Source: a virus. From it: DNA of 64,000 bases. This document shows, piece by piece, positions 18,822 to 57,771 of this stretch; position 1 is the stretch's first letter; every line of letters starts with the position of its first letter. The stretch lies in the IMG/VR virus record IMGVR_UViG_3300029554_000010, positions 8,938 to 72,937 of that record. One strand, given 5' to 3'. The notes under the pieces are model-generated. The model was not told where the DNA came from. It ran no database searches and saw only the letters and a list, made by a program, of their open reading frames with translations. A program made the position numbers and the translations under genes.

Positions 18822-19712
18822 ATGGATTTAGAACAAAAAGCAATTGAGAGAATTCGACTTGCGTCTGATCTCTCGTTGAAACATTATAACAAACCACTTG
18901 TATGTGAGTATTCCGGTGGAAAGGATTCAGATGTACTTCTGGAATTGTTCAGAATATCTGGAATTCCGTTTGAGGTTCATAATTCACATACCACTGTTGA
19001 CGCGCCGCAGACAGTAAGGCATATCAAAAATGTGTTTTCAGAATTGGCAGACAATGGTATCAAATGCGAGATCGACTATCATGTACAGGAAAACGGAAAC
19101 CGTCTTACAATGTGGAATCTCATTCCCAGAAAGCTAATGCCACCGACCAGAATTGTTCGGTATTGCTGTTCAGAACTGAAAGAAGGTGGGAATCCTAACA
19201 GAATGATCGCAACAGGCGTTAGATGGTCTGAAAGCAGTAAGAGAAGCAACAGAAGCCCATTTGAAGTATTAGGGCAGACGGCAAGTAAAAGCATAGGTGT
19301 TTCTGATGAAAAAATGCTTATCACTGACAATGATAATACTAGAAGATTATTTGAAAATTGCCAAATGAAAGCAAAAACAGTAGTCAATCCGATAATTGAT
19401 TGGACAGATCAAAATATCTGGCAGTTCATTGGTGAGAAAGACATTCAGGTATGCGAACTGTATCAATACGGATATGATCGATTAGGCTGTTTGGGTTGTC
19501 CACTTGCATCAAAGAAGCAGAGGGAAAAGGAAATGTATGATTTTCCAAAGCACAAGCAAGCCTACATTCGTTCCTTTGACAGAATGCTTCAGGAGCGAAA
19601 GCAGCGCGGAAAAGATACAAAGTGGAGTTGTGGAGAAGAAGTTTATCTATGGTGGATGCAAGACAACAATATCGTTAGTCAGATGGAATTATCTGATTTT
19701 ATTGAGTATTAA
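18822..19712 (+). CDS. phosphoadenosine-phosphosulfate-reductase-family protein (PP-loop ATPase)
   Basis: PP-loop motif EYSGGKDSDVL; family often found in phage DNA-modification and anti-restriction contexts. Confidence 0.7.
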   Translation: MDLEQKAIERIRLASDLSLKHYNKPLVCEYSGGKDSDVLLELFRISGIPFEVHNSHTTVDAPQTVRHIKNVFSELADNGIKCEIDYHVQENGNRLTMWNLIPRKLMPPTRIVRYCCSELKEGGNPNRMIATGVRWSESSKRSNRSPFEVLGQTASKSIGVSDEKMLITDNDNTRRLFENCQMKAKTVVNPIIDWTDQNIWQFIGEKDIQVCELYQYGYDRLGCLGCPLASKKQREKEMYDFPKHKQAYIRSFDRMLQERKQRGKDTKWSCGEEVYLWWMQDNNIVSQMELSDFIEY

Positions 19713-24282: not shown

Positions 24283-24529
24283 CATTGACGAAAGCGTTAT
24301 TGCTAGAAGTGTTGACCATTACGGAGAAGAAATTCAGGCAACCGTCTGCATGGAGGAATGTGCGGAACTTATACAAGCAATCAGTGAGGAAAAACGTGGA
24401 AAATCGACCGTGATAACATGATAAAAGAAATTGCAGATGTGTTGATCTGCATCGAAATGCTAAAGCAAATGTATATGATTTCCGAAGATAAAATTAATAA
24501 GTGGATTGAGAAGAAACAAGCGAAATAAG
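24272..24529 (+). pseudogene. MazG-like NTP-pyrophosphohydrolase split by a frameshift near 24400-24420
   Basis: N-terminal part ...EECAELIQAISEEKRGK ends at 24421; C-terminal part MIKEIADVLICIEMLKQMY continues in another frame from 24419. Confidence 0.35.
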
Positions 24530-24547
24530 CAGAAAGGATGGAAAAGA

Positions 24548-25669
24548 ATGAATAAGAAAGAAATCGCAGAAATTAAGAAACAGTTTACTCCAGTCAATTG
24601 CACAATCACACGCATTTGTGGTTGTTATGTGGACGCAGAAAAGAACAAGAAAACCAAAATTAAGGAAGCATTCCTGTCTCTTCCAGAGGAAGAAATGTTT
24701 AAGTATTTTGACATTTTCAAGAAAACCATGTCTGGCAGACTTGGAAAAAACCTTATGAACCTTGATTTTCCATTATCACAGGAAAAAGAGGGTGGAACAC
24801 AGGAATTTCTTATGCGGATTAGAGCAAGTAAGCTTAAAAATGACGAACTTTTGGACGAGTTCTACGACAAAGTGATTGAAAATTACGATTATCACGAAAA
24901 TTACTACATAGTTCTCATTCATGCAGTATATGACATTCCAGGAAAAGTTTCTGATGGAACCGAAATGCATGATGCATCAGAAGAAATTTATGAACACATT
25001 CTGTGCAGCATTTGTCCAGTAAATCTTTCAAAGGCTGGGCTTAGCTATGATGTGGCTGAAAATAACATCAAAGACAGAATTCGTGATTGGGTAGTCTCAA
25101 GACCAGAAACAGGATTCTTATTTCCTGTATTCAATGGCAGAAGCACTGATATTCATGAAACCTTGTATTTCAACAAAAACATAAAGAATATTCATCCCGA
25201 CTTCATTGAAAACGTTCTTGGCGCACCAATTCCCCGTACACCCGGCAACGAGATCAATGTCTTTTCAGATTTTATTATGGACAATTTCGAAGGAAATACA
25301 ACATTCAATTTCGCGGAAAGTCTGGTTGAATCTTTGCAGGAAGTAAGAGAACAGAAGAAAGACAGCCCGGAGATGGTAACCGTGTCATGTGATGAAATGG
25401 AACAGATTTTTGGATATTGCGGAGTTCCAGACGAGAAGTTGTCGGATTTCAAAGAAAACTGGGAAATGTATTTCAGCAATGAACCCGTTGCTCTTGACAA
25501 TATTCATAATTCAAAAACTGCAAAAATTGTAACACCAGATGCAACAATCTGCATCCAGCCAGATAAAATTGCTCTGATTGAACTGAAAGAAATAAACGGT
25601 GTTCCATCTCTTGTAATTCCGGTAAATGGAGAACTGAAAATCAATGGAATGGAAGTTAAATTAAAATAA
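24548..25669 (+). CDS. DUF4317-like protein
   Basis: N-terminus MNKKEIAEIKKQFTPVNCTITRICGCYVD matches what I recall of DUF4317 proteins of Clostridia. Confidence 0.45.
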   Translation: MNKKEIAEIKKQFTPVNCTITRICGCYVDAEKNKKTKIKEAFLSLPEEEMFKYFDIFKKTMSGRLGKNLMNLDFPLSQEKEGGTQEFLMRIRASKLKNDELLDEFYDKVIENYDYHENYYIVLIHAVYDIPGKVSDGTEMHDASEEIYEHILCSICPVNLSKAGLSYDVAENNIKDRIRDWVVSRPETGFLFPVFNGRSTDIHETLYFNKNIKNIHPDFIENVLGAPIPRTPGNEINVFSDFIMDNFEGNTTFNFAESLVESLQEVREQKKDSPEMVTVSCDEMEQIFGYCGVPDEKLSDFKENWEMYFSNEPVALDNIHNSKTAKIVTPDATICIQPDKIALIELKEINGVPSLVIPVNGELKINGMEVKLK

Positions 25670-27991: not shown

Positions 27992-28174
27992 GAGGTGAGC
28001 ATATGGCAATTGTTACGATTGATGGAAAAGAAATTGACATCGAACAAATTGAACTGCCAGAAGAAATTATTAAAATCATAATTGAATGCTTAGGTTGACC
28101 GCAAAAATATTGTAGTGTAAAATGTGTCGTAACATGATATGTGCGGCACATTTCTACACAAAGGAGGAATAGTC

Positions 28175-29539
28175 ATGGAATGTGTTGCGTATTTGCGTGT
28201 ATCAACAGAAAAACAGGCCGAAGAGGGAAATGGATTAGACAGTCAGAAAAGAGATATTGAAAATTATTGCAGAAAAAATCAATTGATTATATCTGATTGG
28301 TACGAGGATGATGGCTTCACAGGTTCGAATATGAATCGTCCAGCATTGCAACGCTTAATTAATGATTGCTCAAAGAAAAAATTAAAATGTGTTGTAGCGT
28401 TTAAACTAGATCGATTATCAAGAAGCATGGTCGATGGAATATACTTAATTGAACGTGTATTCATACCTAATGGGGTGGATTTTAGATGCGTGCATGATAG
28501 TGTAAGCTACGACAGCCCAATGGAGCAAGCGTACACTCAGATGATGGCAGTGTTTGCGCAACTTGACAAAAATACTATGTTGCTTAGAATGCGTGGCGGT
28601 ATGCTGGAGCGAGTGAAACAGGGATATTGGATGGGAGGTGGCAACACCCCGTATTGCTATAGATATAGCAAAGAAGACGGAATCTTAGTTCCCATACCAG
28701 AGCGCAAAGAAATGGCTTTGCGAGCTATGAATTTGTATATATCCGGTTATTCTGATGTTCGAATACAGAAATTGATAGGATTTAAAAGCGAGTTTGTTAC
28801 ACGACAGGTTCTTACCAGTCCTGTAAATATTGGCATGATTCCGTATAAAGGAAAACTATATAAGGGAAGACATGAACCAATTTTCGATATTAAAGTATTC
28901 GAATTAGCCCAGGAATTAAGAAAAACTCGTAAGCAAAGTAAAAGCTTCTGCGTTAATCACGAGAATCAGCTCTTGACGGGGCTGTGCTATTGCGGAGTGT
29001 GCGGATGCAAGATGAGATATCAGAAGTGGACTCATGGGAAGCATAAAATTTATTGCTATTCAAGGGATAACGGCATGTCGTACTTACCAAATTACAATCC
29101 GAATTGCAGCAATTCGCTTGAGTGGGCAGAAGATATTGAAAAGCAGGTTGAAGATGAGATTTTAAAGATTTCCCTCAATTTATCATCGCATAAGCCAAAA
29201 GAAAGAGAAAGCTGTCTGGACATTTTGAGTAAACAACTCCAAAAAGAGAAAACGAAGCTAAAACGTCTGTATACTCTTTATGCTGAGGGAAATGATACGG
29301 TTCTGGAGATGATAAAAGAAACGGAATCCGGCATAGATGAACTAAAAATAAAAATACAGAACGAGATGAAGAACCCGGATAACTCACAGAAGAAAGAATT
29401 TGTATACGATAATATAAAAAAGCTTGCCGATGTGTGGGAACACATTGACAAGCAAAACAAAAACCGTATATTAAAAACTATAATATCAAAAATAATTATA
29501 GTCAATGGAAATATTGAAATACAGTTAAAAAAATTTTAG
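28175..29539 (+). CDS. large serine recombinase (serine integrase type)
   Basis: N-terminal resolvase catalytic domain (AYLRVSTEKQ, DRLSRS), recombinase domain and a Cys-rich zinc ribbon (CYCGVCGCKM), plus a C-terminal coiled coil. Confidence 0.85.
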   Translation: MECVAYLRVSTEKQAEEGNGLDSQKRDIENYCRKNQLIISDWYEDDGFTGSNMNRPALQRLINDCSKKKLKCVVAFKLDRLSRSMVDGIYLIERVFIPNGVDFRCVHDSVSYDSPMEQAYTQMMAVFAQLDKNTMLLRMRGGMLERVKQGYWMGGGNTPYCYRYSKEDGILVPIPERKEMALRAMNLYISGYSDVRIQKLIGFKSEFVTRQVLTSPVNIGMIPYKGKLYKGRHEPIFDIKVFELAQELRKTRKQSKSFCVNHENQLLTGLCYCGVCGCKMRYQKWTHGKHKIYCYSRDNGMSYLPNYNPNCSNSLEWAEDIEKQVEDEILKISLNLSSHKPKERESCLDILSKQLQKEKTKLKRLYTLYAEGNDTVLEMIKETESGIDELKIKIQNEMKNPDNSQKKEFVYDNIKKLADVWEHIDKQNKNRILKTIISKIIIVNGNIEIQLKKF

Positions 29540-42981: not shown

Positions 42982-43146
42982 ATGAATCCAGTATTTATAT
43001 TTCTAGTGATATGTGGAGCAGTGGCAGTATGGTTTCTGCTTTACAAATTATTTCAGCCACTAGGTAAATTATTGAATCACATTGGCAGAAATGCTATTGA
43101 TGAGTTAAATAAAGACGAAAGTCAAAACAAGGAGGACAAAGAATGA
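42982..43146 (+). CDS. small membrane protein
   Basis: 54 aa with one TM segment. Confidence 0.3.
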   Translation: MNPVFIFLVICGAVAVWFLLYKLFQPLGKLLNHIGRNAIDELNKDESQNKEDKE

Positions 43147-44096
43147 AGAAAGGACTTTTAGGTGGAATCGGATTAGCTGTTGCAATCATTGCAGGACTTA
43201 TATGCGTTGCAAAGTGTAGTGTAAGGGTTCCAGCCGGTTACATTGCGGTCGAGTACAAAATGAACGGGGGAATCTCCAAGAATGTACTTACGCAGGGATG
43301 GCATTTGATTTCACCTACAGTAAAAACTTCGCTGTATTCTGTTGGAATCGAACAGTCTTATCTTACATCTGAAGATAAAGGCGATTCTCCAAAAGACGAA
43401 AGTTTTAAGACACCAACAGCAGATGGCAAATCTCTTTTAGTTGATTTGGAATTTTCGTATAAATTCGATCAGAGCAGAGTAACTGATGTATTTACTCAGT
43501 TCAAAGGGCAATCCGGGGAATCTGTGAAAAATACCTTTATTAAGCCGAAAATGAAAGCATGGACGCAGGAAGTAACAGCGAAGTATCCAGTAACAGATGT
43601 TTTTGGTGATAAGCGCCAGGAACTGAATGAAGCACTTGACGAATATCTTAAACGGAAGTTTGAACCATACGGAATCATTATTGATACAGTAAACTTTACT
43701 TCTATTTCCACTGATGATGAAACACAAGCTGCAATCCAAAAGAAAGTAAATGCACAGCAAGAGCTTGAATTGGCCAATATTGAAGCTAAAACAGCCAAAG
43801 TACAAGCCGATAAAGATAAAGAAGTTGCACTGATTGCTGCTGAACAGGAAAAAGAAAAAGCAGCTATTCAGGCGGAACAAGCCAAAATTGATGCGGAAGG
43901 CAAAGCCGAAGCTATTAAGATTAAAGCAGAAGCCGAAGCGGAAGCAAACAGAAAGATTGCAGAATCGCTTACCCCTGAACTAATTGAAAAGCAGAAAATT
44001 GATAAATGGAATGGCGAAGTTCCGAAGATTCAGGGAAGTAACACTTCTACAATCGTAGATACAAGAGATATGACAGCCAATGAGAATGCTGAATAA
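43143..44096 (+). CDS. SPFH/band-7 domain membrane protein
   Basis: N-terminal TM helix, SPFH-like core, C-terminal A/E/K-rich coiled coil. Confidence 0.65.
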   Translation: MKKGLLGGIGLAVAIIAGLICVAKCSVRVPAGYIAVEYKMNGGISKNVLTQGWHLISPTVKTSLYSVGIEQSYLTSEDKGDSPKDESFKTPTADGKSLLVDLEFSYKFDQSRVTDVFTQFKGQSGESVKNTFIKPKMKAWTQEVTAKYPVTDVFGDKRQELNEALDEYLKRKFEPYGIIIDTVNFTSISTDDETQAAIQKKVNAQQELELANIEAKTAKVQADKDKEVALIAAEQEKEKAAIQAEQAKIDAEGKAEAIKIKAEAEAEANRKIAESLTPELIEKQKIDKWNGEVPKIQGSNTSTIVDTRDMTANENAE

Positions 44097-45908: not shown

Positions 45909-46331
45909 ATGGATATAAAGGAATATTTGAATCAAATTCAACGATACGAAAAAGTTATAAATAACAAACTGGAAGAAATTGAGCACTTAAAATTGCTTGC
46001 CACCAGTATTAGTGCTTCGGCATATGGCATTGAACGCGTTCAGACTTCAGGAAGCCAAGATAAAATAGGCGATACCATAGCAAAACTGGTGGACGCACAG
46101 CGTGAACTGGCTGATGATGTGGTAGAACTTATAGAGAAAAAACAGAAACTTATAGATGTTATAGAATCCGTGAAAAATCCCCAATATTATGATTTTTTGT
46201 ACAAACGATACATAGAGGGAAAAAAGCTAACTGTTATTGCAGATGAAATGGAATACAGCGAAGAATATATTAAACAATTCCATGGAAGAGCCGTGAATTA
46301 CGTAAAAGAAATGCTTAATTTTAAAAGTTAG
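45909..46331 (+). CDS. sigma-70 region-4-like HTH protein, a putative late transcription regulator
   Basis: C-terminus YDFLYKRYIEGKKLTVIADEMEYSEEYIKQFHGRAV resembles sigma region 4. Confidence 0.5.
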   Translation: MDIKEYLNQIQRYEKVINNKLEEIEHLKLLATSISASAYGIERVQTSGSQDKIGDTIAKLVDAQRELADDVVELIEKKQKLIDVIESVKNPQYYDFLYKRYIEGKKLTVIADEMEYSEEYIKQFHGRAVNYVKEMLNFKS

Positions 46332-46354
46332 CACCTTTTCTTACTGAATATAAC
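46332..46354 (+). promoter_or_regulatory. conserved 23-nt box CACCTTTTCTTACTGAATATAAC, copy 1
   Basis: identical 23-mer at 56358-56380; both copies begin right after a stop codon and precede a terminator-like hairpin and a structural gene. Confidence 0.5.
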
Positions 46355-46392
46355 TTTTCAGTTATGTATAATATATGATGAAAATGTATGAA

Positions 46393-46420
46393 GCATCGGG
46401 TAAAAACTCGGTGCTTTTTT
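46393..46420 (+). terminator. hairpin GCATCGGG-TAAAAA-CTCGGTGC plus TTTTTT
   Basis: 8-bp stem including two G-U pairs, then a T-run, 25 nt before the portal RBS. Confidence 0.5.
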
Positions 46421-46445
46421 CATGCCTAAAAAGGAGGTACGGGCA

Positions 46446-47924
46446 GTGGCAAGAAATAAGATGAATTATATTGACCTCTGCCATGGTGAATTTGGTAGAA
46501 AGGTAGCATATACCGGAGTAAGTAAAATTACACCAGAAAATGTACTGAAAGTGATTGCTGATACAATCGGCGTTCACAATAGAAATAGGACAATAATTGA
46601 TTATCTGTATAGATACTACAAAGGCGATCAGCCAGTTCTTTACAGAGAAAAACTTGTGCGTCCTGAAATTAACAATCGAGTGTGCGAGAATCACGCACTT
46701 GAAGTTGTACGCTTCAAAGCATCTCAGACTTATGGCGAACCAATTCAGTTTGTTTGTAAGAAAAAGAACGCTACAAAAGAAAGCAACGCACAGGTAGACC
46801 TGTTCAATGATTACCTGGATGAAGCAAATGCAGAAGCCAGAAACATTGAGTTAGGAACATATCAAAGTGCAGTAGGAACTGCATACAAGTGCATTCTTCG
46901 TGAAGAAGATTGGACAGCAGATTCAGACATTCCGCCATTTAGAATTTTTATTCCGTATCCTGGAGATTGCTATATTGTTTATTCTAAAGGCACCGGAAAA
47001 CCACTGATGTCGGTTCAGATATTAAAAGACGAAGATGACCAACAGTATTATCAGTGCTATTCAAAAAACCAGTATTTCATTGTGCAGAATGGAAAGATTA
47101 AAAAAGCCGGTCTGAATGGCTTCGGAAACATTCCAATTATTGAATATCCAAACAATCATGACAGATTATCTGATGTTGAAATAGCAATCACAATGTTCGA
47201 TACAATCAATAACATGCAGTCAAACAGAATGGATGGAGTTGAACAGTTTGTTCAAGCCTTTATGAAATTCAAGAACTGTGAGATTGACGAGAACGAATTC
47301 CTCAAGATGGTAAAACTTGGCGCTATATCTGTTAAAGATACCAGCAATGGATGCCAGTCGGATGTTGAACTGATGACTGCTGAACTGAATCAGTCAGAAA
47401 GCCAAGTTGCTAAAGATGATATTTACAGTAATATGCTGATTGTTGAAGGAATGCCAGATAGACAACAAAACACTGGCGGAGATACCGGTCAAGCCGTATA
47501 TCTCCGCAATGGTTGGGACTTTGCAGAGCGTAGAGCCAAATTGGATGAACCTTTTATCCGTGAAGCTGAGAAAGCATCTGCCAGAATAATACTTAACATT
47601 ATAAGAAATACTACTGGTGATATAAAACTTTCGACAAGAGATTTTGATGTAAAAATTACCAGAAACCCAACGGATAACATGCTTGTTAAAGCACAGGCCC
47701 TCGATTATCTGGTTAAGAATAAAATACATCCGCTCATTGCACTTATTACTTGTGGATTATTTAGTGATCCGCAGAAAGTATACGAAATGAGTTTTCCGTA
47801 CATGCAGTCATTGTATAAGAATCCAGAAGAGGAAACGCAGAAAGCACAAGAATTGATTGACAATTTTAGCCAGAAATCAGTTCAAAATCAATCAGCAATA
47901 ATTTCTTCCACTGACGAAGAATAA
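46446..47924 (+). CDS. portal protein
   Basis: about 490 aa, positioned after the terminase; the start is GTG 46446 or ATG 46461 after RBS AAAGGAGG. Confidence 0.75.
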   Translation: MARNKMNYIDLCHGEFGRKVAYTGVSKITPENVLKVIADTIGVHNRNRTIIDYLYRYYKGDQPVLYREKLVRPEINNRVCENHALEVVRFKASQTYGEPIQFVCKKKNATKESNAQVDLFNDYLDEANAEARNIELGTYQSAVGTAYKCILREEDWTADSDIPPFRIFIPYPGDCYIVYSKGTGKPLMSVQILKDEDDQQYYQCYSKNQYFIVQNGKIKKAGLNGFGNIPIIEYPNNHDRLSDVEIAITMFDTINNMQSNRMDGVEQFVQAFMKFKNCEIDENEFLKMVKLGAISVKDTSNGCQSDVELMTAELNQSESQVAKDDIYSNMLIVEGMPDRQQNTGGDTGQAVYLRNGWDFAERRAKLDEPFIREAEKASARIILNIIRNTTGDIKLSTRDFDVKITRNPTDNMLVKAQALDYLVKNKIHPLIALITCGLFSDPQKVYEMSFPYMQSLYKNPEEETQKAQELIDNFSQKSVQNQSAIISSTDEE

Positions 47925-49103: not shown

Positions 49104-50138
49104 ATGCCATATAATGTTTTAGATACTATCACAGAAGAAGAGAGACTTAAGTTTTCCCAAAATTTTCCAGTACCGAGTGCTGGCATTCTGGACGTAATTT
49201 TTCCAAATGTAAAAACCCAGTTCTGGAAAGCAGAATATTACAGATTGATGAGTGGGCAGAACCTTCCTAAAGTAGCTTATGTTCATGCCCTTGATACAGA
49301 AGCACATATCAGTTCCAGACCTGGATTCGAAAAAGTAATGACTGAAAAATTCCTGATTAAGGAGAAAAGCAATCTGTCTGAAAAATTACAGGAAGCTATC
49401 GAAAATGGTGTCCCGGACGATGAATCTCTTACAAAATATGTTTTTGATGATGCAACAAGACTTTTCAAGAACGTATTTGAAAGAACAAAAGTTATGAAAG
49501 GTCAAATTCTTTCCACCGGCAAACTCAATATTAATGAGAACAGGGTGAAAATGGAAGTTGATTTTGGCGTTCCCGCTGATGCAAAAGTAGATCTTTCTGA
49601 CTGGTCTAAGCCTGTTGCTGACATCATGGGAGATATTCAGAAAATGGTAGCAGTTGCAGAAGATAAAGGATATGTAGTTAACAGAGCCGTTACTTCTAAG
49701 AAAATGATTGGATACATGAGAAACAACGAAGCAATGCAGACAGCAGTTTTAGGCGCGGCTAATAAGCGTCTTCTGACCAAACAGGAACTTGCAAATCTTC
49801 TCATGCAGGAATTTGACATTGAAGTTGCCACATGCGAAGGAAAATTCAATTACGATAAAGCAGATGGAACTCTTGGAGTTTCCAGATACTTCAAAGAAAA
49901 CGTATTCACTCTTTATGCAGCAGAAGCAGATGGATCCTTCGGCGCAGGTCTGTGGGGACCAACACCGGACGAAAATGCTTACAAAGCATTTATCGAACAG
50001 GAAAATCGTTCCTTTGTTACTTTATCCATGTGGGCTACACCAGACCCAGTTGCTACATGGACTAAAGCATCTGGTTTATTTATTCCAGTAGCTTCAAAAT
50101 CCAATGGTGGTCTTATCATTGGTACAAAGGGGGAATAA
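49104..50138 (+). CDS. major capsid protein
   Basis: 344 aa following the scaffold; position and size; family not confirmed. Confidence 0.6.
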   Translation: MPYNVLDTITEEERLKFSQNFPVPSAGILDVIFPNVKTQFWKAEYYRLMSGQNLPKVAYVHALDTEAHISSRPGFEKVMTEKFLIKEKSNLSEKLQEAIENGVPDDESLTKYVFDDATRLFKNVFERTKVMKGQILSTGKLNINENRVKMEVDFGVPADAKVDLSDWSKPVADIMGDIQKMVAVAEDKGYVVNRAVTSKKMIGYMRNNEAMQTAVLGAANKRLLTKQELANLLMQEFDIEVATCEGKFNYDKADGTLGVSRYFKENVFTLYAAEADGSFGAGLWGPTPDENAYKAFIEQENRSFVTLSMWATPDPVATWTKASGLFIPVASKSNGGLIIGTKGE

Positions 50139-50685: not shown

Positions 50686-50795
50686 AAAAGATGGGATGGA
50701 ACGCAATGTGTTTTTCCTCCCGGTACATTGCAGGGTTGCTCATTAAAGTAGGGAAAGAGCAAAAATCTTATAGGGAGTGAAAGAAAGGAAAAGCG

Positions 50796-51107
50796 ATGGG
50801 ATGTGAACATGAGTGCTTTAACAATCACCGCTTCGAAGAAATTGAAAAAAGTATTCATGATATGCAGGAAAAGCAGTCTGAAAGGCACAAAGAATTTTAT
50901 TCAAGAATTAATAAGCTCGAACAGAAGACCGCCCTGTATAGCAATGACTTAGATCATATTAAAGAAACAGTCGATGAAATGAACAACAATTTAAAAATCC
51001 TCATGGCAGTCCCTGGCAAACGTTATGACACCATTATTGTATGCATTATAACGGCAGTCGTGGGAGCAGTTGTAGGATTTATGTTGAGCGGTGTATTTCC
51101 TATGTAA
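50796..51107 (+). CDS. XhlA-like protein (coiled coil plus C-terminal TM helix)
   Basis: central coiled coil and the C-terminal hydrophobic helix IIVCIITAVVGAVVGFMLSGVF. Confidence 0.5.
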   Translation: MGCEHECFNNHRFEEIEKSIHDMQEKQSERHKEFYSRINKLEQKTALYSNDLDHIKETVDEMNNNLKILMAVPGKRYDTIIVCIITAVVGAVVGFMLSGVFPM

Positions 51108-51146
51108 CAAATTGATTCCACTTGTAAGGGAGGACGGTGGAGTTAT

Positions 51147-51401
51147 ATGAATTATGCAGATTTTTCAGAAGATGAAAGAAAATTTTACTTGCAAGAAGCA
51201 GGTTTTAATTCACGCGAAGAAAAATTATTTCGATTACGGGCTTATGGCGAAAAGACATTATGGGAAGCATCTGAATTAATGGAGTACAGCCCCAGAACCA
51301 TAGACCGAATCAATAAAAAAATAAAACAGAAAATTACCAAAGTTGCCCCGATGTACATTCGGGGCTTTTCTTTGCATAATGGCGGAAATGTGGCGAAATA
51401 G
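51147..51401 (+). CDS. sigma-70 region-4-like HTH protein
   Basis: RLRAYGEKTLWEASELMEYSPRTIDRINKKIKQKI. Confidence 0.5.
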   Translation: MNYADFSEDERKFYLQEAGFNSREEKLFRLRAYGEKTLWEASELMEYSPRTIDRINKKIKQKITKVAPMYIRGFSLHNGGNVAK

Positions 51402-51556
51402 TGACGTTCAAATACAGTGTTCCTTTCTATATAATATAATCATAGGAGAAAACGTAATGATTATATTAAGAAACCCTTACGAGGGTATATGGGAAAAGCA
51501 TCGTTCTATAGATGATATGGATATGATTCTTGAATCCCGGACAGGAGGAACAGATT

Positions 51557-52066
51557 ATGGCAGGTTATCCGTATTATCCGCAACAGCCAATGATGAGCAA
51601 CCCTTACGGACAAATACAGCCGTATCAAGACAGGTTGGCACAATTACAGAATAACTATCAACAGGCAATGCCATATGGACAAATGCAGATGCAGCAGCCT
51701 GTACAACAAATGCAGCAAATGCCGATGCTTCAAGGGCAGATGGTTGATGGCATTGATACTGTAAAAGCAAAGGACGTTGATATGTCTGGCAACCCTGTTT
51801 ACTATCCAAAGACAGATGGAACAGAAATATATAAAAAGCAATTACAGGCAGACGGAAGAAGCAGGATTTTTGTTTACCGACTTGCAAATCCAGACGAACA
51901 GCAGCAACCGAAGCAGGAAGAAAAACAGATTGACATTGAGTCCATGTTTAACCAGCTTCGGAACGATGTTTGTTCTGAGATTTCCGGAATCAAAGATATG
52001 TTCCCGACATTTATGTCAGGAACATCGGAAGCTGCAAAACAGCAGAACGGAGGTAAGCAGAGATGA
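51557..52066 (+). CDS. Gln/Pro/Met-rich low-complexity protein
   Basis: YPYYPQQPMMSNPYGQIQPYQ...QMQMQQPVQQMQQMPMLQGQM. Confidence 0.5.
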   Translation: MAGYPYYPQQPMMSNPYGQIQPYQDRLAQLQNNYQQAMPYGQMQMQQPVQQMQQMPMLQGQMVDGIDTVKAKDVDMSGNPVYYPKTDGTEIYKKQLQADGRSRIFVYRLANPDEQQQPKQEEKQIDIESMFNQLRNDVCSEISGIKDMFPTFMSGTSEAAKQQNGGKQR

Positions 52067-52308
52067 ATTTCAACCCAAACGCCATGATGAAAAAGCAACT
52101 TGAGAAAATGATTTCTCAGAGGTTCGGAAGTGTGGATAACATGATGAACGATATGAGCAAATTTGCAGGAAACAATCCAACATTGAAAAATGCCTTGGAT
52201 TTATATAAAAAAGGTGATGCAGACCAGCTACATCAAATACAACAAAATGTATTCAATGAAAAACATTTATCTCCAGATGGAATTATCCAGAAATTCCTTG
52301 GATTATAA
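52063..52308 (+). CDS. hypothetical protein
   Basis: 81 aa, coupled to its neighbours. Confidence 0.4.
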   Translation: MNFNPNAMMKKQLEKMISQRFGSVDNMMNDMSKFAGNNPTLKNALDLYKKGDADQLHQIQQNVFNEKHLSPDGIIQKFLGL

Positions 52309-52404
52309 CACTTCCCCATAATTGGGTGATTAAAAATCGCTACAATTTGGGACGACAGCCGCGGATGTCTCCTATTGTAAATAATATTTAAGGAGACTAA
52401 AAAC

Positions 52405-53217
52405 ATGATGAATGGTTCTAATTACAGTCTTAGCGACATTGCTGCTGCTACAGGCTCTAATAACCGTGCCAATGACATGTGGGGCGGTGATGGATTTTCA
52501 CTTATCTGGCTTGTCTTGATCTTTGCTATCTTCGGATGGGGAGGTTTTGGCGGCTGGGGCGGCGGCTTCGGTGGCAATGGTGGAAACGGTGCGAACGGTG
52601 CCGGTTTCCAAGGATGGGCTACCCGTTCAGATATTAATGAGGAATTCGCCCTTAATGATATTCAGAATGGTATCAGAGGTATTCAGCAGGGTATCTGTGA
52701 CAGCACATATTCTCTTAACAATACCATGCAGAGTGGCTTTAATGGCATGAATGTCGGAATGCTTCAAGGCTTCAACGGCGTTCAGCAGGCTATCAATGCT
52801 GATACTGTAGCCGGTATGCAGAATACCAACGCATTACAGTCTCAGTTAGCTCAGTGTTGCTGCGACAACAGGGAAGCTATCCAGGGTATCAACTACAACC
52901 TGGCAACCAACACTTGTGCTCTCCAGAACACAATGAACAACAACACCAGAGACCTTATCGAAAACCAGAACAGCAATGCTAGAGCAATACTTGACTTTAT
53001 GGTAAATGATAAGATTGCAACGTTACAGGCTGAGAACTCTGATCTGAAACGTGCTGCATCTCAGGATCGTCAGTCTGCATTACTTACAACTGCTATGGCT
53101 TCTCAGACTCAGCAGTTAATCAATGCAATCAATCCGGCAGCTATCCCGGCCTACGTTGTTCCAAATCCAAACACCTACTACGGTGGATGCAACGGATATG
53201 GAAACGGTTGCTGCTAA
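52405..53217 (+). CDS. Gly/Asn/Gln-rich protein with a TM helix and Cys clusters
   Basis: SLIWLVLIFAIFGWGGFGGWGGGFGGNGGNG..., internal CCCD and C-terminal GGCNGYGNGCC. Confidence 0.5.
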   Translation: MMNGSNYSLSDIAAATGSNNRANDMWGGDGFSLIWLVLIFAIFGWGGFGGWGGGFGGNGGNGANGAGFQGWATRSDINEEFALNDIQNGIRGIQQGICDSTYSLNNTMQSGFNGMNVGMLQGFNGVQQAINADTVAGMQNTNALQSQLAQCCCDNREAIQGINYNLATNTCALQNTMNNNTRDLIENQNSNARAILDFMVNDKIATLQAENSDLKRAASQDRQSALLTTAMASQTQQLINAINPAAIPAYVVPNPNTYYGGCNGYGNGCC

Positions 53218-53294
53218 GTAACTCGCCCTTAGAGGTTGACTAATTCTAAGAGGTGGGTTGCGGCTCACCTCTTATTTGATTGAGAGGTAGAAAT

Positions 53295-53720
53295 ATGAGT
53301 TGTAAAAATGTTTGTAAGCTCTGCAACCATCTTGTGATAAGCCAGTCTGTCGCATTCACTGGTGGGAATCTTGTGGTTACACTCCCGGCAGGCAGTTATT
53401 CCAATGGAGAAAAGTATTGCATTGTTATCGCACAAAGCATACCAGAAGCCACTACGATTACTGCCCCGGTAATGATTCAGATAGGAACAGGAACAACTTT
53501 GTATCCGCTAGAGAATCGTTGCTGTGCACAGGTTACAGCTTGTGGCGTAAGAACTAGAACAAAATACGCAACCAGAGTAGCTACAAGTGCAACTGGTGGA
53601 GTATTCAAGATGCTAGGAAACCCGGCTTGTAGTCCGAGTAATAATTTAACTGCAATTAATGGTACAGCCCCAACAACAGACACACCTGTTACACAGGCTG
53701 TTAGAAAGGGGGCACTGTAA
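53295..53720 (+). CDS. Cys-containing Thr/Ala-rich hypothetical protein
   Basis: MSCKNVCKLCNHLV... ; start at the internal ATG 53295. Confidence 0.45.
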   Translation: MSCKNVCKLCNHLVISQSVAFTGGNLVVTLPAGSYSNGEKYCIVIAQSIPEATTITAPVMIQIGTGTTLYPLENRCCAQVTACGVRTRTKYATRVATSATGGVFKMLGNPACSPSNNLTAINGTAPTTDTPVTQAVRKGAL

Positions 53721-54346
53721 TGCATAAAGTTGCAATGGAAATGGGAAAATGGGCTATGGAAAAAGCCAAAACACATGGCTTCGACAATCTCAGTGCTCAA
53801 GACTGGGACGATCTGAAAGACTGCATGGAAGCTGTAAAGTGTGCGATTTGTGCAGATAAAGATTACAGAATCGTAGAAGCTATGGACGAATGCGAGCAGG
53901 AAGAGAAGTATCTTGGACGCATGGGATATGACAGATATCGTTATGCAAACGGCAGATTTGCACCAAAAGGCAGAGGAAGCCGTATGGGATACAATCCGTA
54001 TCTGTACATGGAAGATAATGACTGGATGGAAGAGTATCTGAACAATCCAGATTTCGAACGTAATATGTACCGCATGGGATATCATCCAGATCGTAGTGAT
54101 ATGAGGATGGATGGAATGAACCATAAGCAGTCCAGATATGGCGAAAGCTATGACAGATACAGCGAGAACCGCAGACATTACCATGATTCCAACGATACAG
54201 AATCTAAGAGAAAAATGGACGATTCCATGAAAGAGTACACATCTGACATTATCCGCAATCTTACTGAGATGTGGTCTGATGCAGATGCGACCCTTAGGCA
54301 GTCGATGAAAACCGACTTAACTCGTCTGATACAGCAGATGAATTAA
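53720..54346 (+). CDS. Tyr/Arg/Met-rich protein with RMGY repeats
   Basis: GRMGYDRYRY, SRMGYNPYLY, YRMGYHPDRSDMRMDGM. Confidence 0.5.
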   Translation: MHKVAMEMGKWAMEKAKTHGFDNLSAQDWDDLKDCMEAVKCAICADKDYRIVEAMDECEQEEKYLGRMGYDRYRYANGRFAPKGRGSRMGYNPYLYMEDNDWMEEYLNNPDFERNMYRMGYHPDRSDMRMDGMNHKQSRYGESYDRYSENRRHYHDSNDTESKRKMDDSMKEYTSDIIRNLTEMWSDADATLRQSMKTDLTRLIQQMN

Positions 54347-54415
54347 CAAATAAGAATTAAATTTAGTCCTTGTTGCAGAAATGTGACAGGGACTTTTTAA
54401 TTATGGAGATTGATT

Positions 54416-54742
54416 ATGGAAAAATGTAAAATAAATATTCTTGGGACAGAGTATACGATTGAACCAAGAAATTTAAAAGATGAAAATTACGATGGTTTTA
54501 CAGACAACACCAACAAACTAATAGTCATACGTTCCGATAATCAGAATAATGTTGGAGATTTTGATTTCTTGCAGAAAAAGCAATTGAGACATGAAATCAT
54601 TCATGCATTCTTGTCTGAAAGCGGATTACAGTGTAATTGGCAACATATGGAACAATTTGGGCATGACGAAACTACTGTTGACTGGTTTGCAATTCAATCT
54701 CCAAAGATTTTTGAAGTATTCAAAGGACTTGATTTAATATGA
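54416..54742 (+). CDS. HExxH zinc-metallopeptidase-like protein
   Basis: motif LRHEIIHAFL. Confidence 0.45.
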   Translation: MEKCKINILGTEYTIEPRNLKDENYDGFTDNTNKLIVIRSDNQNNVGDFDFLQKKQLRHEIIHAFLSESGLQCNWQHMEQFGHDETTVDWFAIQSPKIFEVFKGLDLI

Positions 54743-54760
54743 AAAGGATGGTGATAAACC

Positions 54761-55147
54761 ATGCTAAGACAATTCTATATGAACGGAGACCTATGGAGGG
54801 TACAGTTCGTATCTCCGCACGACAGCGTGTTAATTGACCGCACAGGCGAAAGAACTCTTGCGGTATCGGATTATTCAACAATGACAATTTCGATTGCAAA
54901 TAATCTGCGTGGGGAACTTCTGAACCGTGTGTTTATCCATGAGTTAGGGCATTGTGTGATGTTCAGTTATGGTTTATTGCCAAAACTTCACCGTATGGTC
55001 AAGAAACAGTATTGGGTGGATGCAGAGGAATTTGTGTGTAATATGCTTGCCGATTACGGATGCTTTGTAATTGGCGTTGCAAAAGATGTTTTAGGAAACC
55101 AATTTACTTATGTGTCCCCTGTTGGAGTAGAAAAAATGATTGCATAA
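54761..55147 (+). CDS. HExxH metallopeptidase-like protein (ImmA/IrrE-like pattern)
   Basis: motif RVFIHELGHCVM. Confidence 0.5.
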   Translation: MLRQFYMNGDLWRVQFVSPHDSVLIDRTGERTLAVSDYSTMTISIANNLRGELLNRVFIHELGHCVMFSYGLLPKLHRMVKKQYWVDAEEFVCNMLADYGCFVIGVAKDVLGNQFTYVSPVGVEKMIA

Positions 55148-55210
55148 ATGAAAACCCTATTTTGCCAACTGTAAATGATGATGGTGTACTTATTTTTTAG
55201 GAGGTAGTTC

Positions 55211-55386
55211 ATGGCAGAATCAATTTTAAAAATCCATACTCAAAACGGAGATATTCCAGTTGGGTATCCAGGCTTAGCAGACAAGCCTATCTCAGATAAA
55301 ACTTTGAGTAAAGAGGGAGCATTTGCCGACTCCAAAGCCGTAGGGGATAAATTTAAAGAAGTAAAGGCAGAAACTGAAATAAAATA
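55211..55386 (+). CDS. small hypothetical protein
   Basis: RBS AGGAGG; 58 aa. Confidence 0.35.
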
Positions 55387-55447
55387 AACAATCAACCATT
55401 TAGGAGAGAGCAGAAATGTTCTCCTTTTTTGCATTGGAGAAAGTATT

Positions 55448-55834: not shown

Positions 55835-56349
55835 ACGGACGAGTAATCAAATGCAATCTGAGCCAAAAATCTATTGGAAACGCAATCAAAGAATTGAAAG
55901 CATATCAAAACAGTCTTCGCGATAAAAATGAAGTATTTCTTAAAAGGCTTTGCGAATTGGGAATTCCTGTCATAGACGAAAATATTATGTTGGCACAAGG
56001 AGATTCTGACAGGAACCACAATACCTACATCAAAATCAACAGGTTCGGAAATTACGCGCAGGCAACTCTTGTGTGCGAAGGCTCTGGACTTTTGTTCATA
56101 GAATTCGGTGCTGGTATTTCGTACAACACTCCGGCAGGAACAAGCCCCCATCCAAAAGGAGAAGAATTCGGATATACCATTGGTTCCTACGGACAGGGCA
56201 AAGGAAAAAACGAATCGTGGGTATATGTGGCAGATTCTGGCGAATGGGTGCGTTCTTACGGTACAGAGGCTACAATGCCCGTTTACAAAGCGAGCGTAGA
56301 AATTATGCAGAATATCCGTAGAATCGCAAAAGAAGTATTTTCTGCATAA
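55831..56349 (+). CDS. hypothetical structural protein
   Basis: 172 aa, coupled to the preceding gene. Confidence 0.4.
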   Translation: MNGRVIKCNLSQKSIGNAIKELKAYQNSLRDKNEVFLKRLCELGIPVIDENIMLAQGDSDRNHNTYIKINRFGNYAQATLVCEGSGLLFIEFGAGISYNTPAGTSPHPKGEEFGYTIGSYGQGKGKNESWVYVADSGEWVRSYGTEATMPVYKASVEIMQNIRRIAKEVFSA

Positions 56350-56357
56350 AAACATAT

Positions 56358-56380
56358 CACCTTTTCTTACTGAATATAAC
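56358..56380 (+). promoter_or_regulatory. conserved 23-nt box CACCTTTTCTTACTGAATATAAC, copy 2
   Basis: identical to 46332-46354. Confidence 0.5.
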
Positions 56381-56411
56381 GTCTGTTTTATGTATACTGT
56401 AAAATATAAAA

Positions 56412-56440
56412 GCATCTACCGGAATGGTGGGTGCTTTTTC
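56412..56440 (+). terminator. hairpin GCATCTACC-GGAAT-GGTGGGTGC plus TTTTT
   Basis: 9-bp stem with G-U pairs, followed by a T-run. Confidence 0.5.
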
Positions 56441-56467
56441 TATGCTCAAAACAAGGTGGTGACAGAG

Positions 56468-56869
56468 ATGCCAGATGTAGTGAAAAATCCAGTTTCGGAT
56501 GTATTTGAACGATGGAAAGCAACTATTGAACCCGTTGTAGGAAAAGGGAACTTTTCTAATGACGAAAGTCAGACGGTAGCTTCAAACAAAAGGGTTTACG
56601 CACGTTTGTTCTTACTTGGAAATCCAACATCACGTGGCAATCTTGAGGGAGATGAGTGCGCGACAACGCCATCTTTCCAATCAGAATCCTATGCGACTGG
56701 TTCAAAAGCTTCTTCAAAAGCATATGAAATTGACGATGCCAGTCACAAGGCTATGGTTGGCATGGGGTTCCGTAGGATATACGGGCCCGTAAGACAAAAT
56801 AATGCTGATAACAGCATAAAACGTGTTGTTAGCAGATATAGCCGGATATATACTGGCACATTACTCTAG
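56468..56869 (+). CDS. hypothetical structural protein
   Basis: RBS AAGGTGG before ATG 56468. Confidence 0.45.
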   Translation: MPDVVKNPVSDVFERWKATIEPVVGKGNFSNDESQTVASNKRVYARLFLLGNPTSRGNLEGDECATTPSFQSESYATGSKASSKAYEIDDASHKAMVGMGFRRIYGPVRQNNADNSIKRVVSRYSRIYTGTLL

Positions 56870-56887: not shown

Positions 56888-57181
56888 ATGGAACAGATTA
56901 TGAATTACGTGAAACCGGAACTTCTTATTGTCGCGGTTGTACTGTACTTTATCGGAATGGGAATCAAAAAATCCGAAGTCATACCGGACAAATATATCCC
57001 GGCAATCCTTGGTGCTTTAGGCATTCTGATTTGTGGAATTTATGTTATTGCTACATGCGCTATATCTGGCGCACAGGAAATCGCAATGGCAATTTTTACC
57101 GCAATCACACAGGGAATCCTCGTTGCAGGACTTAGTAATTATGTAAATCAGATTGTAAAGCAGGCAAGCAAAGAAGACTAG
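56888..57181 (+). CDS. holin-like small membrane protein (2-3 TM segments)
   Basis: LLIVAVVLYFIGMGI, ILGALGILICGIYVIATCAI, AIFTAITQGILVAGL and a charged C-terminus. Confidence 0.45.
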   Translation: MEQIMNYVKPELLIVAVVLYFIGMGIKKSEVIPDKYIPAILGALGILICGIYVIATCAISGAQEIAMAIFTAITQGILVAGLSNYVNQIVKQASKED

Positions 57182-57221
57182 AAGGAGGTGATCCTTTTAT
57201 CTCCCGGTACAGGGTTACGTA

Positions 57222-57248: not shown

Positions 57249-57291
57249 TTTATTGCAACAAATTATAGCCGAAAGGCAGAAAGGAGCCAAA

Positions 57292-57771
57292 ATGGCACGA
57301 TTAACTACACTTGGTGTGAAATTTTCATATGCCGTTGAAACCGTGAAAGGTACAAAACCTGCCAAATTCACACAGCTGGAAGAAGCCTCTTCCATCGGCG
57401 GTATTTCTCTTGACACAGAACAGATTGATGTTTCTGCACTGGAAGATTATCTGACTCAGTATGCAGCTGGTAGACAGGATACAGGTGGTACATGGGAAAT
57501 TGAATTCATCATGGATCCAGACAAATCTGTTAAACAGATTAAAAAACTGTACGAAGATTCTAAGACTGCAAAAACTACAGGACTGGCAACCTGGTTCCAG
57601 GTGTCATTCCCGGATATGTCCGACGCATTCTTTGTTATTGCAGAATGCGGTCGCGAAATTCCAATGCCAGAAATTGCACAGAACGAAGCAGCAACCATGT
57701 CTATTTCTCTTATCATCAATACATATAAGGGACTGGATACCAAAATTGAGCCGACAGCGGCTGCTGAATAA
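57292..57771 (+). CDS. major tail protein
   Basis: about 160 aa directly upstream of the chaperone and tape-measure genes; start MARLTTLGVKF. Confidence 0.55.
   Translation: MARLTTLGVKFSYAVETVKGTKPAKFTQLEEASSIGGISLDTEQIDVSALEDYLTQYAAGRQDTGGTWEIEFIMDPDKSVKQIKKLYEDSKTAKTTGLATWFQVSFPDMSDAFFVIAECGREIPMPEIAQNEAATMSISLIINTYKGLDTKIEPTAAAE

Follow-up and report, generated by a model that had tools for sequence, protein, structure and literature searches.

Evidence for an exchanged late gene module with a cysteine-rich membrane protein in the head-tail region of a gut phage

We have analyzed 64,000 nucleotides of viral DNA (positions 8,938 to 72,937 of the IMG/VR record IMGVR_UViG_3300029554_000010; this whole stretch is called the window here), in which a run of small genes stands between the head-tail connector and the neck genes. 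It is well supported that the run from 51147 to 55147 is a self-contained late gene module that is horizontally exchanged between phages, and we term it the GN module after its signature protein GN. The slots of the module follow a set order: a helix-turn-helix (HTH) protein resembling region 4 of sigma-70, the proteins QP, s81 and GN, then either CT or a BclA_C-like beta protein, then either RMGY or an R/Y-rich region with DUF7841, and finally one or two minimal zincins. A gene for a tail-anchored XhlA-like protein usually stands before the module. All open reading frames (ORFs) that an earlier note on this DNA had listed here are present on the plus strand with the coordinates given there, and the ORFs of the island were called identically by independent gene callers in 6 public contigs. 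The 81-amino-acid gene s81, which the note did not itemise, belongs to the same run. Ribosome-binding sites (AGGAGG, GAGAGG and GGAG) back the starts at 51557, 53295 and 54416. All coordinates are collected in Table 1.

Gene order and mobility of the module

A scan of one genome per species yielded 47 genome loci with the module, mostly from Lachnospiraceae, Oscillospiraceae and other Clostridia, with Blautia and Muriventricola among them. Iterated hidden Markov models (HMMs) recovered the same order in all of them, namely HTH, QP, s81, GN, a beta protein of about 130-170 amino acids, an R/Y-rich protein and a zincin. The genomic setting of the module varies. It lies between connector and neck genes in the window and between the portal/minor capsid genes and the scaffold and major capsid protein (MCP) genes in Dulem virus 35; in bajarodcaudo virus 5 (L083) it comes after holin and lysin, where the late operon ends, and in a further temperate phage (L144) it stands between an endolysin and an integrase. 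A prophage of Muriventricola aceti (L096) carries an XhlA-like gene, a holin, an amidase, the module and an integrase in this order. The flanking genes across the loci comprise lysins of the GH25, amidase, M23, CHAP and M15 types, integrases, and plain host housekeeping genes, and the orientation of the module is always that of the late genes. A plasmid collection gave one hit, on a Vescimonas megaplasmid.

Two slots are occupied by alternative proteins. Behind GN lies either CT or an unrelated protein of about 140 amino acids with a GCC motif, which resembles the C-terminal domain of BclA below threshold. In the slot of RMGY an R/Y-rich region is elsewhere fused to DUF7841 (L096, L104, L113, L114 and L144; E 1.6e-34 in L096). 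The RMGY protein of the window has no Pfam match to DUF7841 (PF25223), and a local HMM search found this domain nowhere in the window.

Conservation among related phages

In a first set of 80 IMG/VR loci, gathered by GN similarity, the island core was 80-98% identical at about 70% identity of the capsid protein. Because this set is biased by its selection, the test was repeated with loci selected by their capsid protein, in a main set of 62 loci in which this protein is 71-79% identical and a further set of 16. We define the core as QP, s81, GN, CT, RMGY and the HELGH zincin (51557-55147). The core genes are present in 53-59 of the 62 and in 11-15 of the 16 loci, and the gaps are largely incomplete loci. 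Median identities across the 62 loci inside the core are 95% for s81, 94% for CT, 93% for GN, 89% for RMGY, 84% for HELGH and 82% for QP; outside the core they are 73% for both MCP and the HTH protein, 68% for the XhlA-like protein, 63% for the connector, and 62% and 37% for the neck proteins n128 and n172. With 68% against 73% for the capsid protein, the XhlA-like protein evolves at the rate of the phage backbone. In this phage lineage the module is fixed, and its conservation greatly exceeds that of the surrounding head and neck genes. The earlier note had raised the question whether the island is accessory, and among related phages it is not; the presence of the core in nearly all relatives, at a conservation above that of the capsid, touches the very finding that the note had named as speaking against its view.

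Within a group of phages with at least 95% identical MCP, GN is 43-96% identical, which shows that GN alleles are shuffled relative to MCP alleles. Because the core is more conserved than the capsid, and because GN varies this widely at near-identical capsid proteins, we infer that the block 51557-55147 has its own history, is exchanged between backbones and is tightly constrained. The sole variable parts are the second zincin gene, HEIIH, which is present in 8 of the 16 and 11 of the 62 relatives, and a hypervariable insertion slot that follows HELGH. In near-identical phages this slot holds genes for a 523-residue protein, for proteins of 405 and 52 residues, or for a 138-residue protein and a 413-residue glycerophosphodiester phosphodiesterase (GDPD). 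Some relatives have an 85-residue reverse-strand gene there.

Predicted transcription signals

The earlier note had seen the island bracketed by two repeated motifs. Both exist, and neither delimits the island. The motif CTCCCGGTACA, found at 50717 upstream of the island, has a second copy at 57201, immediately before the tail-tube gene; 0.2 copies would be expected, and a count of 2 was reached in 1 of 100 shuffles. One copy of the 23-nucleotide box precedes the portal gene (46332) and the other the n159/holin block (56358). This box belongs to a 67-nucleotide promoter-like direct repeat (46323-46389 and 56349-56415) that also contains a TATAAT-like -10 element, and behind each copy of the repeat another conserved stretch is found, GGTGCTTTTTTCATGC (46410-46431 and 56430-56451). 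The copies precede the portal gene and the n159/holin/tail-tube block, and they resemble a late promoter with its leader that is present twice. An ORF at 56390-56869 begins within the repeat; in some relatives a 133-amino-acid gene is called at this place, and the true start of the ORF may be further downstream.

The predicted punctuation of the island is internal and consists of the promoter at 51407-51435 and hairpins at 51345, 53247 and 54365. The sequence TTCAAA-17-TATAAT is retained in 138 loci, in which the spacer between HTH and QP exists in a 76-nucleotide and a 155-nucleotide version. In the longer version lies an ORF (51457-51654) with its own AGGAG ribosome-binding site, which overlaps the QP start out of frame and is absent from relatives with the 76-nucleotide spacer. 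The spacer between GN and CT (53218-53294) can form three mutually exclusive hairpins, one of them terminator-like and one that would sequester the CT ribosome-binding site in the manner of an attenuator; the spacer is nearly invariant in 107 loci, so that no covariation test is possible. For the terminator after RMGY, compensatory changes of the stem are found between alleles (TTGC/GACA, TTAC/GTAG, CTAC/GTGG, TCGC/GCGG). Terminator-like sites number 16 against 6.0 +/- 2.2 in shuffles. The start of s81 overlaps the QP stop by 4 nucleotides and the start of RMGY overlaps the CT stop by 1 nucleotide, and these overlaps suggest translational coupling of QP with s81 and of CT with RMGY. The proposal of a separately regulated cassette holds up: the module appears to have its own conserved promoter and a covarying terminator, and it moves as a unit between phage genomes.

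The module proteins

The island had been described as compositionally extreme. Measured as Kullback-Leibler divergence from the proteome of the window, where most genes lie below 0.17, this applies to QP (0.34), GN (0.31), CT (0.28), RMGY (0.24) and s81 (0.23), which are among the strongest outliers in the window; the XhlA-like protein, the HTH protein and both zincins have an ordinary composition. QP contains 17.8% Q, 8.3% M and 7.7% P, GN 14.1% N and 13.3% G along with 8 Cys, CT 5.7% C and 14.2% T, and RMGY 9.6% M, 9.1% R and 7.7% Y with three copies of the motif that gave it its name.

GN begins with an acidic N-tail of about 30 residues, followed by a membrane helix, a Gly-rich linker, long helices with an invariant CCC motif, a Pro-rich PAxIPAYVVPNPN segment and a Cys/Gly tail. 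The C-terminal GGCNGYGNGCC described before is present, and the Cys positions are conserved. AlphaFold2 places helices at residues 31-42, 83-122 and 134-242 with low confidence. In distant homologues GN had seemed to carry s81 fused to its N-terminus, but this impression by eye was not borne out by an s81 HMM. CT is the most conserved protein of the cassette, with 52-73% identity in nearly all loci, even where GN is at 30-50%. Its 8 conserved Cys include a CxxxCxxC motif at the N-terminus, a CC pair at 76-77, C42, C83 and C112. We had considered the radical-SAM-like CxxxCxxC as an Fe-S site and dropped this, as the spacing is not kept in bajarodcaudo virus 5. An alignment of 34 diverse homologues reveals the layout of QP, with a low-complexity N-terminus rich in Q, P, M and Y, a conserved beta domain of about 55 residues, a C-terminal amphipathic helix and a basic tail. 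An antisense ORF of 235 amino acids (53477-54184, minus strand) spans CT and RMGY; since the genes on the sense strand both belong to conserved families, it is almost certainly spurious.

Assignment of these proteins to known families was mostly negative. QP, GN and both zincins fall into PHROG families of unknown function, and phrog_1233 covers both zincins. For QP, s81, RMGY, GN and CT there was no structural PHROG category and no Pfam or PDB match, and searches of the island proteins against Pfam, NCBIfam and PADLOC returned nothing above cut-off; the only PADLOC signal was coiled-coil noise on the XhlA-like protein, and no known defence family was matched. Sequence and profile searches of the PDB with CT, QP, GN and HELGH alone gave no credible match, and a GN profile run against the solved virion chains of phages, the crAss001 atlas among them, detected no relative (best E 0.43). 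This agrees with the earlier statement that no product fits a standard virion family, since the Pfam, NCBIfam and PDB profile searches were empty above cut-off. AlphaFold2 models of CT (28-sequence alignment; mean predicted local distance difference test score 46.6) and GN (39 sequences; 50.6) were of low confidence, with hits that were too conserved.

The call of an XhlA-like protein stands on its PHROG matches (phrog_937 'hemolysin', E 6.5e-12; phrog_1193, E 6.1e-8), and the protein is named hemolysin in NCBI nr; at E<=1 it has no match to Pfam XhlA. The sigma region-4-like call of the HTH protein also stands, weakly: the match to TIGR02937 covers model positions 116-163 only and scores 26.7 bits against a cut-off of 42.9. 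Source annotations name the protein an ECF sigma or CsgD-family regulator, and its gene is directly upstream of QP in most cassettes. We rejected a sigma factor of the sigma-70 family, since 84 amino acids are too short, region 4 alone aligns and region 2 is missing; the protein is rather predicted to be a small DNA-binding protein with a region-4-like HTH.

The motifs of the two HExxH proteins were confirmed, and both are genuine candidates for minimal zincins. Across 18 diverse homologues with 15-56% identity, H60, E61 and H64 show no variation and E90 is conserved to at least 90%; beyond H, E, H and this Glu, which lies about 26-30 residues downstream, nothing is conserved. HEIIH and HELGH are predicted to be paralogous, with HEIIH being patchy and accessory. 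A profile of the family found Wss1 (E 0.0021), MJ1213 (E 0.0033-0.0074) and IrrE (E 0.041) in the PDB, and source annotations call HELGH a PolyVal metallopeptidase or IrrE N-terminal-like. With minigluzincins, Wss1/WLM, IrrE/ImmA (M78) and the metallopeptidase domains of polyvalent proteins the window zincins share HExxH and the downstream Glu, and their size of 108-128 amino acids is close to that of the minigluzincin MJ1213 (110 amino acids). In contrast to these known minimal zincins, all matches of the window proteins are under the curated cut-offs, and unlike the polyvalent-protein domains they stand alone. Membership in ImmA/IrrE (Peptidase_M78) was rejected: the window proteins have no M78 match, and the best homologue (L137) reaches 20.6 bits against a cut-off of 22. 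An ImmA/ImmR-like pairing was rejected as well, as the neighbouring HTH protein is sigma region-4-like and no Xre-type repressor adjoins the zincins.

Distribution beyond Clostridia

The GN family is large. The window copy has 7,728 homologues, and the family comprises 2,586 clusters at 50% identity, whose representatives are almost all stand-alone proteins of 230-330 amino acids. The CCC motif is kept in 99 of 104 full-length representatives, and 88 of the 104 have at least two Cys in the last 14 residues. For further divergent representatives the genomic context consists of contigs of 1.5-3 kb only. In two sequences (P0049 and P0053) the first ~170 GN residues are joined to a GDSL/SGNH hydrolase domain; we set this fusion aside as a clue to topology, as it is probably a recombinant or a chimeric contig.

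Many Crassvirales encode full-length GN homologues. Among crAss-like Suoliviridae the local genes are arranged as holin, LysB/FtsL-like protein, a DUF7841 protein with R/Y-rich tail (gp65 of cr109_1 matches DUF7841 with E 1.7e-43), GN and two small proteins. In the recoded cr109_1 (L138, 1775-5634) in-frame stops are found in the holin, the LysB-like protein, GN and gp62, and not in the DUF7841 protein or gp63. The cultured Bacteroides uniformis phage C3_41T2LP carries GN followed by a 180-residue protein, a 177-residue protein, a 77-residue R/Y/D-rich protein, a DUF7841 protein (133 amino acids, E 5.3e-16) and a zincin with the same HELGHC motif. Profile comparison by hhalign links this zincin to HELGH (probability 78%, E 1.8e-5) and gives no link between CT and the 180-residue protein (0.8%) or between QP and the 177-residue protein (1.7%). 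GN genes annotated with the same PHROG are also found in viruses assigned to Methanomassiliicoccales, where the host assignments are predictions of the records; hosts of metagenome-assembled genomes were likewise taken from the records themselves. Judged by profile comparison, demonstrable homology across phyla is thus confined to GN, DUF7841 and, weakly, the zincin, and other resemblances would be architectural. Such a distribution speaks strongly against a role specific to spores and also against one tied to peptidoglycan or the outer membrane. Literature searches on DUF7841, on the name C3_41T2LP and on crass lysis cassettes found no description of the module.

Reverse-transcriptase genes (YMDD) lie a few genes from the GN module in three unrelated viruses (L001, 14477-15631 in MT835477.1; L140, 2933-3967 in vir215; L141, 478-1503 in cr52_1). 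They are likely diversity-generating retroelements, and their proximity, near tail genes, is probably coincidental.

The window phage

The window apparently covers most of the ~80 kb genome of a temperate siphophage of Blautia (B. obeum). Exact island protein sequences are also found in public records named Bacteriophage sp. A temperate Blautia phage is suggested because close cluster members of the island proteins are recorded under Blautia obeum and the clusters occur on contigs of up to ~500 kb. The backbone includes a portal of the SPP1 type and a decoration-like protein. The Hol44-family holin gene stands between the neck genes and the tail-tube gene, 1.7 kb downstream of the module, and is the context for a link to lysis; searches with two endolysins from related loci (phmmer) found no endolysin in the window, which leaves this holin far from any endolysin. 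In Dulem virus 35 a holin likewise directly follows the head-tail connector. In some relatives RtcB takes the place of the SPFH/Band_7 protein upstream of the terminase.

Table 1. Features of the module and of the window phage (positions in the window; empty cells, no entry)
Feature	Position	Strand	Length	Evidence or description
RecT	11358-12290			
PAPS-reductase-like protein	18822-19712			
DUF4317 protein	24506-25669			
Large serine recombinase	28139-29539			
SPFH/Band_7 protein	43143-44096			Just upstream of terminase
Portal, SPP1-type	46422-47924			PF05133, E 4e-70
Major capsid protein (MCP)	49104-50138			phrog_29, E 4e-42
XhlA-like protein	50796-51107	+	103 aa	N-terminal coiled coil, C-terminal membrane helix (tail-anchored), read from sequence
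Sigma-70 region-4-like HTH protein	51147-51401	+	84 aa	TIGR02937, E 3.5e-6; Sigma70_r4, E 0.023
Terminator-like hairpin	51345-51365	+		GCCCCGA...TCGGGGC then TTTTCTTT; within 3' end of HTH gene
Sigma-70-type promoter-like site	51407-51435	+		TTCAAA, 17 nt, TATAAT; 10/12 consensus matches; before QP
QP	51557-52066	+	169 aa	phrog_21718, E 4.2e-18
s81	52063-52308	+	81 aa	Met/Gln/Asn-rich, helical; syntenic in most cassettes
GN, signature protein	52405-53217	+	270 aa	phrog_16490, E 2.6e-65
Terminator-like hairpin	53247-53274	+		In GN-CT spacer
CT	53295-53720	+	141 aa	Beta-rich; 4,436 homologues, alignments
RMGY	53720-54346	+	208 aa	Cys-containing helical N-terminus, R/M/G/Y/D-rich disordered middle, helical C-terminus
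Rho-independent terminator (predicted)	54365-54394	+		13-bp stem then TTTTT; after RMGY
HEIIH minimal zincin (predicted)	54416-54742	+	108 aa	phrog_1233, E 4.9e-20
HELGH minimal gluzincin-like peptidase (predicted)	54761-55147	+	128 aa	Regular last gene of cassette
Hypervariable insertion slot	55148-55447	+		58-aa ORF (55211-55387), then hairpin 55406-55423
Hol44-family holin	56888-57181	+		PF16079, E 1.8e-28; phrog_1129, E 1.7e-22
Tail tube protein	57253-57771			

Discussion

The function that we tentatively favour for the module is that of a membrane-tethered cytoplasmic late complex that works together with the XhlA/holin stage. GN would be inserted in the cytoplasmic membrane with its short acidic N-tail outside, so that the Gly-rich linker, the long coiled coil with the CCC motif and the (GC)n tail would remain cytoplasmic. 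There it could scaffold partners without signal peptide, made as the coupled pairs QP/s81 and CT/RMGY. The Cys clusters might bind metal or lock subunits together, the minimal zincin would process one of the partners and the HTH protein would time the expression. When infection ends, such a complex on the inner side of the cytoplasmic membrane could act with the XhlA/holin apparatus to tune or complete permeabilisation and egress, whatever the type of cell wall. We favour this reading because the module repeatedly adjoins XhlA-like, holin or endolysin genes in independent lineages, is co-oriented with late genes, and combines a membrane anchor in GN with partners that carry no export signal; as read from their sequences, the partner proteins have neither a signal peptide nor a membrane helix. 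The charge of the N-tail enters in the same sense. In 104 representatives of GN this tail has on average 0.6 K/R and 2.9 D/E, and the C-terminal flank has a mean of 1.35 K/R, which fits a topology with the N-terminus out and the C-terminus in.

XhlA acts together with the holin XhlB in lysis by PBSX (PMC5589764), and lytic cassettes of Bacillus prophages carry small beta-rich accessory proteins of unclear mechanism, XepA and YomS (PMC6834076). These are the nearest precedents. In the PBSX/SPbeta cassette (XepA or YomS, XhlA, the holin XhlB, XlyA) a tail-anchored coiled-coil membrane protein of the XhlA type heads the block, as an XhlA-like protein does in the window, a holin is nearby, and small beta-rich proteins are included, as in the GN module. 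In the Muriventricola prophage the XhlA-like gene leads directly to holin and amidase and then to the module; in the window, 5.8 kb separate the XhlA-like gene from the holin downstream. There are clear differences, too. XepA and YomS have no sequence relation to CT or the other partners, and their structures, both in the PDB, were not matched; PBSX lacks GN, QP, s81, RMGY, HTH and zincins, which the module adds, and in the window neither holin nor endolysin adjoins the module. A second comparison is the i-spanin Rz of lambda, whose overall layout GN shares, with a membrane helix at the N-terminus and, after it, two long helices that carry conserved cysteines, and GN of crAss-like phages adjoins a holin and a LysB-like protein. 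In contrast to Rz, most hosts of the module are monoderm Clostridia without an outer membrane to fuse, no gene for a lipoprotein partner is in the block, sequence similarity was not detected, and the charge bias suggests that the helical domain of GN is cytoplasmic. We have therefore rejected GN as part of a two-component spanin.

Several points weigh against the proposed complex at the holin stage. No characterised homologue ties GN, CT, QP, s81 or RMGY to lysis. The adjacency to lysis genes is frequent and not universal; C3_41T2LP has the module surrounded by genes for replication and recombination. Cargo genes in general tend to land where the late operon ends, so the adjacency may reflect position rather than function. 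The call of GN topology depends on a small charge bias, and the two AlphaFold models, of CT and GN, give no structural support owing to their low confidence. High conservation combined with an own promoter and terminator would be equally expected of a moron expressed from the prophage. The GN homologues assigned to the wall-less Methanomassiliicoccales suit a role at the membrane, but these host assignments are predicted.

The module might instead encode packaged proteins, that is, internal head or pilot proteins that are processed by the zincin and ejected with the DNA, with GN entering the membrane of the next host and the basic disordered partners travelling with the DNA. Its place inside morphogenesis operons in the window, in Dulem virus 35 and in crAss-like phages, where it stands between tail proteins and a 'virion structural protein', speaks for such a particle-centred role, which would also suit hosts with three envelope types. 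The sequences lack apparent signal peptides and include disordered R/Y/D-rich and basic tails, and the zincins are named PolyVal-type metallopeptidases, a group of enzymes for which Iyer et al. propose the processing of proteins for packaging or injection (PMC5512222). Yet the GN profile found no relative among the solved virion chains, temperate Clostridia phages have the module after the endolysin and beside the integrase, and in C3_41T2LP it is placed among replication genes. An own HTH protein, promoter and terminators would be unusual for structural genes, and a conservation far above that of capsid and neck genes also speaks against packaging. On balance we think that packaging is unlikely. 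A similarly low rating applies to a multi-gene moron, transcribed in lysogens by the host RNA polymerase, that alters the membrane or the physiology of the host (superinfection exclusion, tolerance of envelope or metal stress) to the benefit of both lysogen and phage. Morons, as defined for lambdoid phages, are units of promoter, gene and terminator inserted in late operons. The module shares with them the conserved sigma-70-type promoter and covarying terminator within a late operon, variable insertion points at module junctions, and a history that differs from that of the flanking genes, being exchanged between backbones and more conserved than these. It is found at prophage ends beside integrase or host genes, and the window phage encodes a large serine recombinase and has island proteins recorded under Blautia obeum. 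In contrast to a moron, the module comprises 6-9 genes with an internal regulator rather than a single gene, and it is fixed in the lineage rather than sporadic. Crassvirales are generally regarded as non-lysogenic, yet core parts of the module, GN and DUF7841, are conserved in them, and their GN has recoded in-frame stops like late genes. The constant co-orientation with late genes and the lack of a match to a known defence family in PADLOC also argue against a moron.

The earlier note had compared the island to spore coat. In such a reading the Cys-, Tyr-, Gln- and Gly-rich proteins would assemble as a cross-linked, exosporium-like matrix on spores, or as extracellular matrix, in spore-forming hosts. 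The compositions do resemble those of coat proteins, signal peptides are not apparent, most hosts are Clostridia, and many cassettes have the BclA_C-like protein after GN (PF18573, E 4.4e-7, 5.7e-6, 2.6e-5 and 3.3e-3), which recalls the C1q/TNF-like C-terminal domain of BclA in the Bacillus exosporium. However, every one of these matches is under the Pfam cut-off of 38 bits, the module has no collagen-like stalk, and CT of the window is a different family, without link to the BclA_C-like alleles (hhalign probability 0.3%). At E<=1 the window proteins match no coat or exosporium family of Pfam or NCBIfam (BclA, CotY/Z, GerQ and similar). Furthermore, GN, DUF7841 and the zincin are shared by the Bacteroides uniformis phage and Crassvirales, which have non-sporulating hosts, and by viruses assigned to archaea. 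The host range largely refutes this reading, which we regard as very improbable, and what survives of the analogy is a resemblance in composition.

A wider proposal, which we put forward as a doubtful possibility, is that the GN module represents an ancient and undescribed late-stage apparatus of gut viruses that infect Bacillota, Bacteroidota (Crassvirales included) and possibly Methanomassiliicoccales. Its parts would be GN as a Cys- or metal-rich coiled-coil scaffold tethered to the membrane, the dedicated partners (CT or a TNF-like protein, QP, s81, and an R/Y-rich protein or DUF7841) and a minimal zincin of its own. At the cytoplasmic membrane, and whatever the envelope type, it would serve a step of egress or entry for which model phages offer no counterpart. 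If the link to lysis is true, the module proteins would be a new class of lysis or egress accessory factors; if they are packaged, they would be a new class of ejected proteins. The presence of the module in a cultured phage (Bacteroides C3-41T2LP) and in prophages of isolates (Muriventricola aceti H5_61, Lachnospira intestinalis CLA-AA-H89B and Blautia obeum) makes these ideas directly testable. The GN family is very large, occurs in abundant phages of the human gut including crAss-like phages, and is, as far as we could find, unnamed and unstudied. An exchanged unit of 6-9 genes, under a constraint that far exceeds that of the capsid genes and found with hosts of three envelope types, points to an important and so far unexplained step in the life cycle of phages in the gut.

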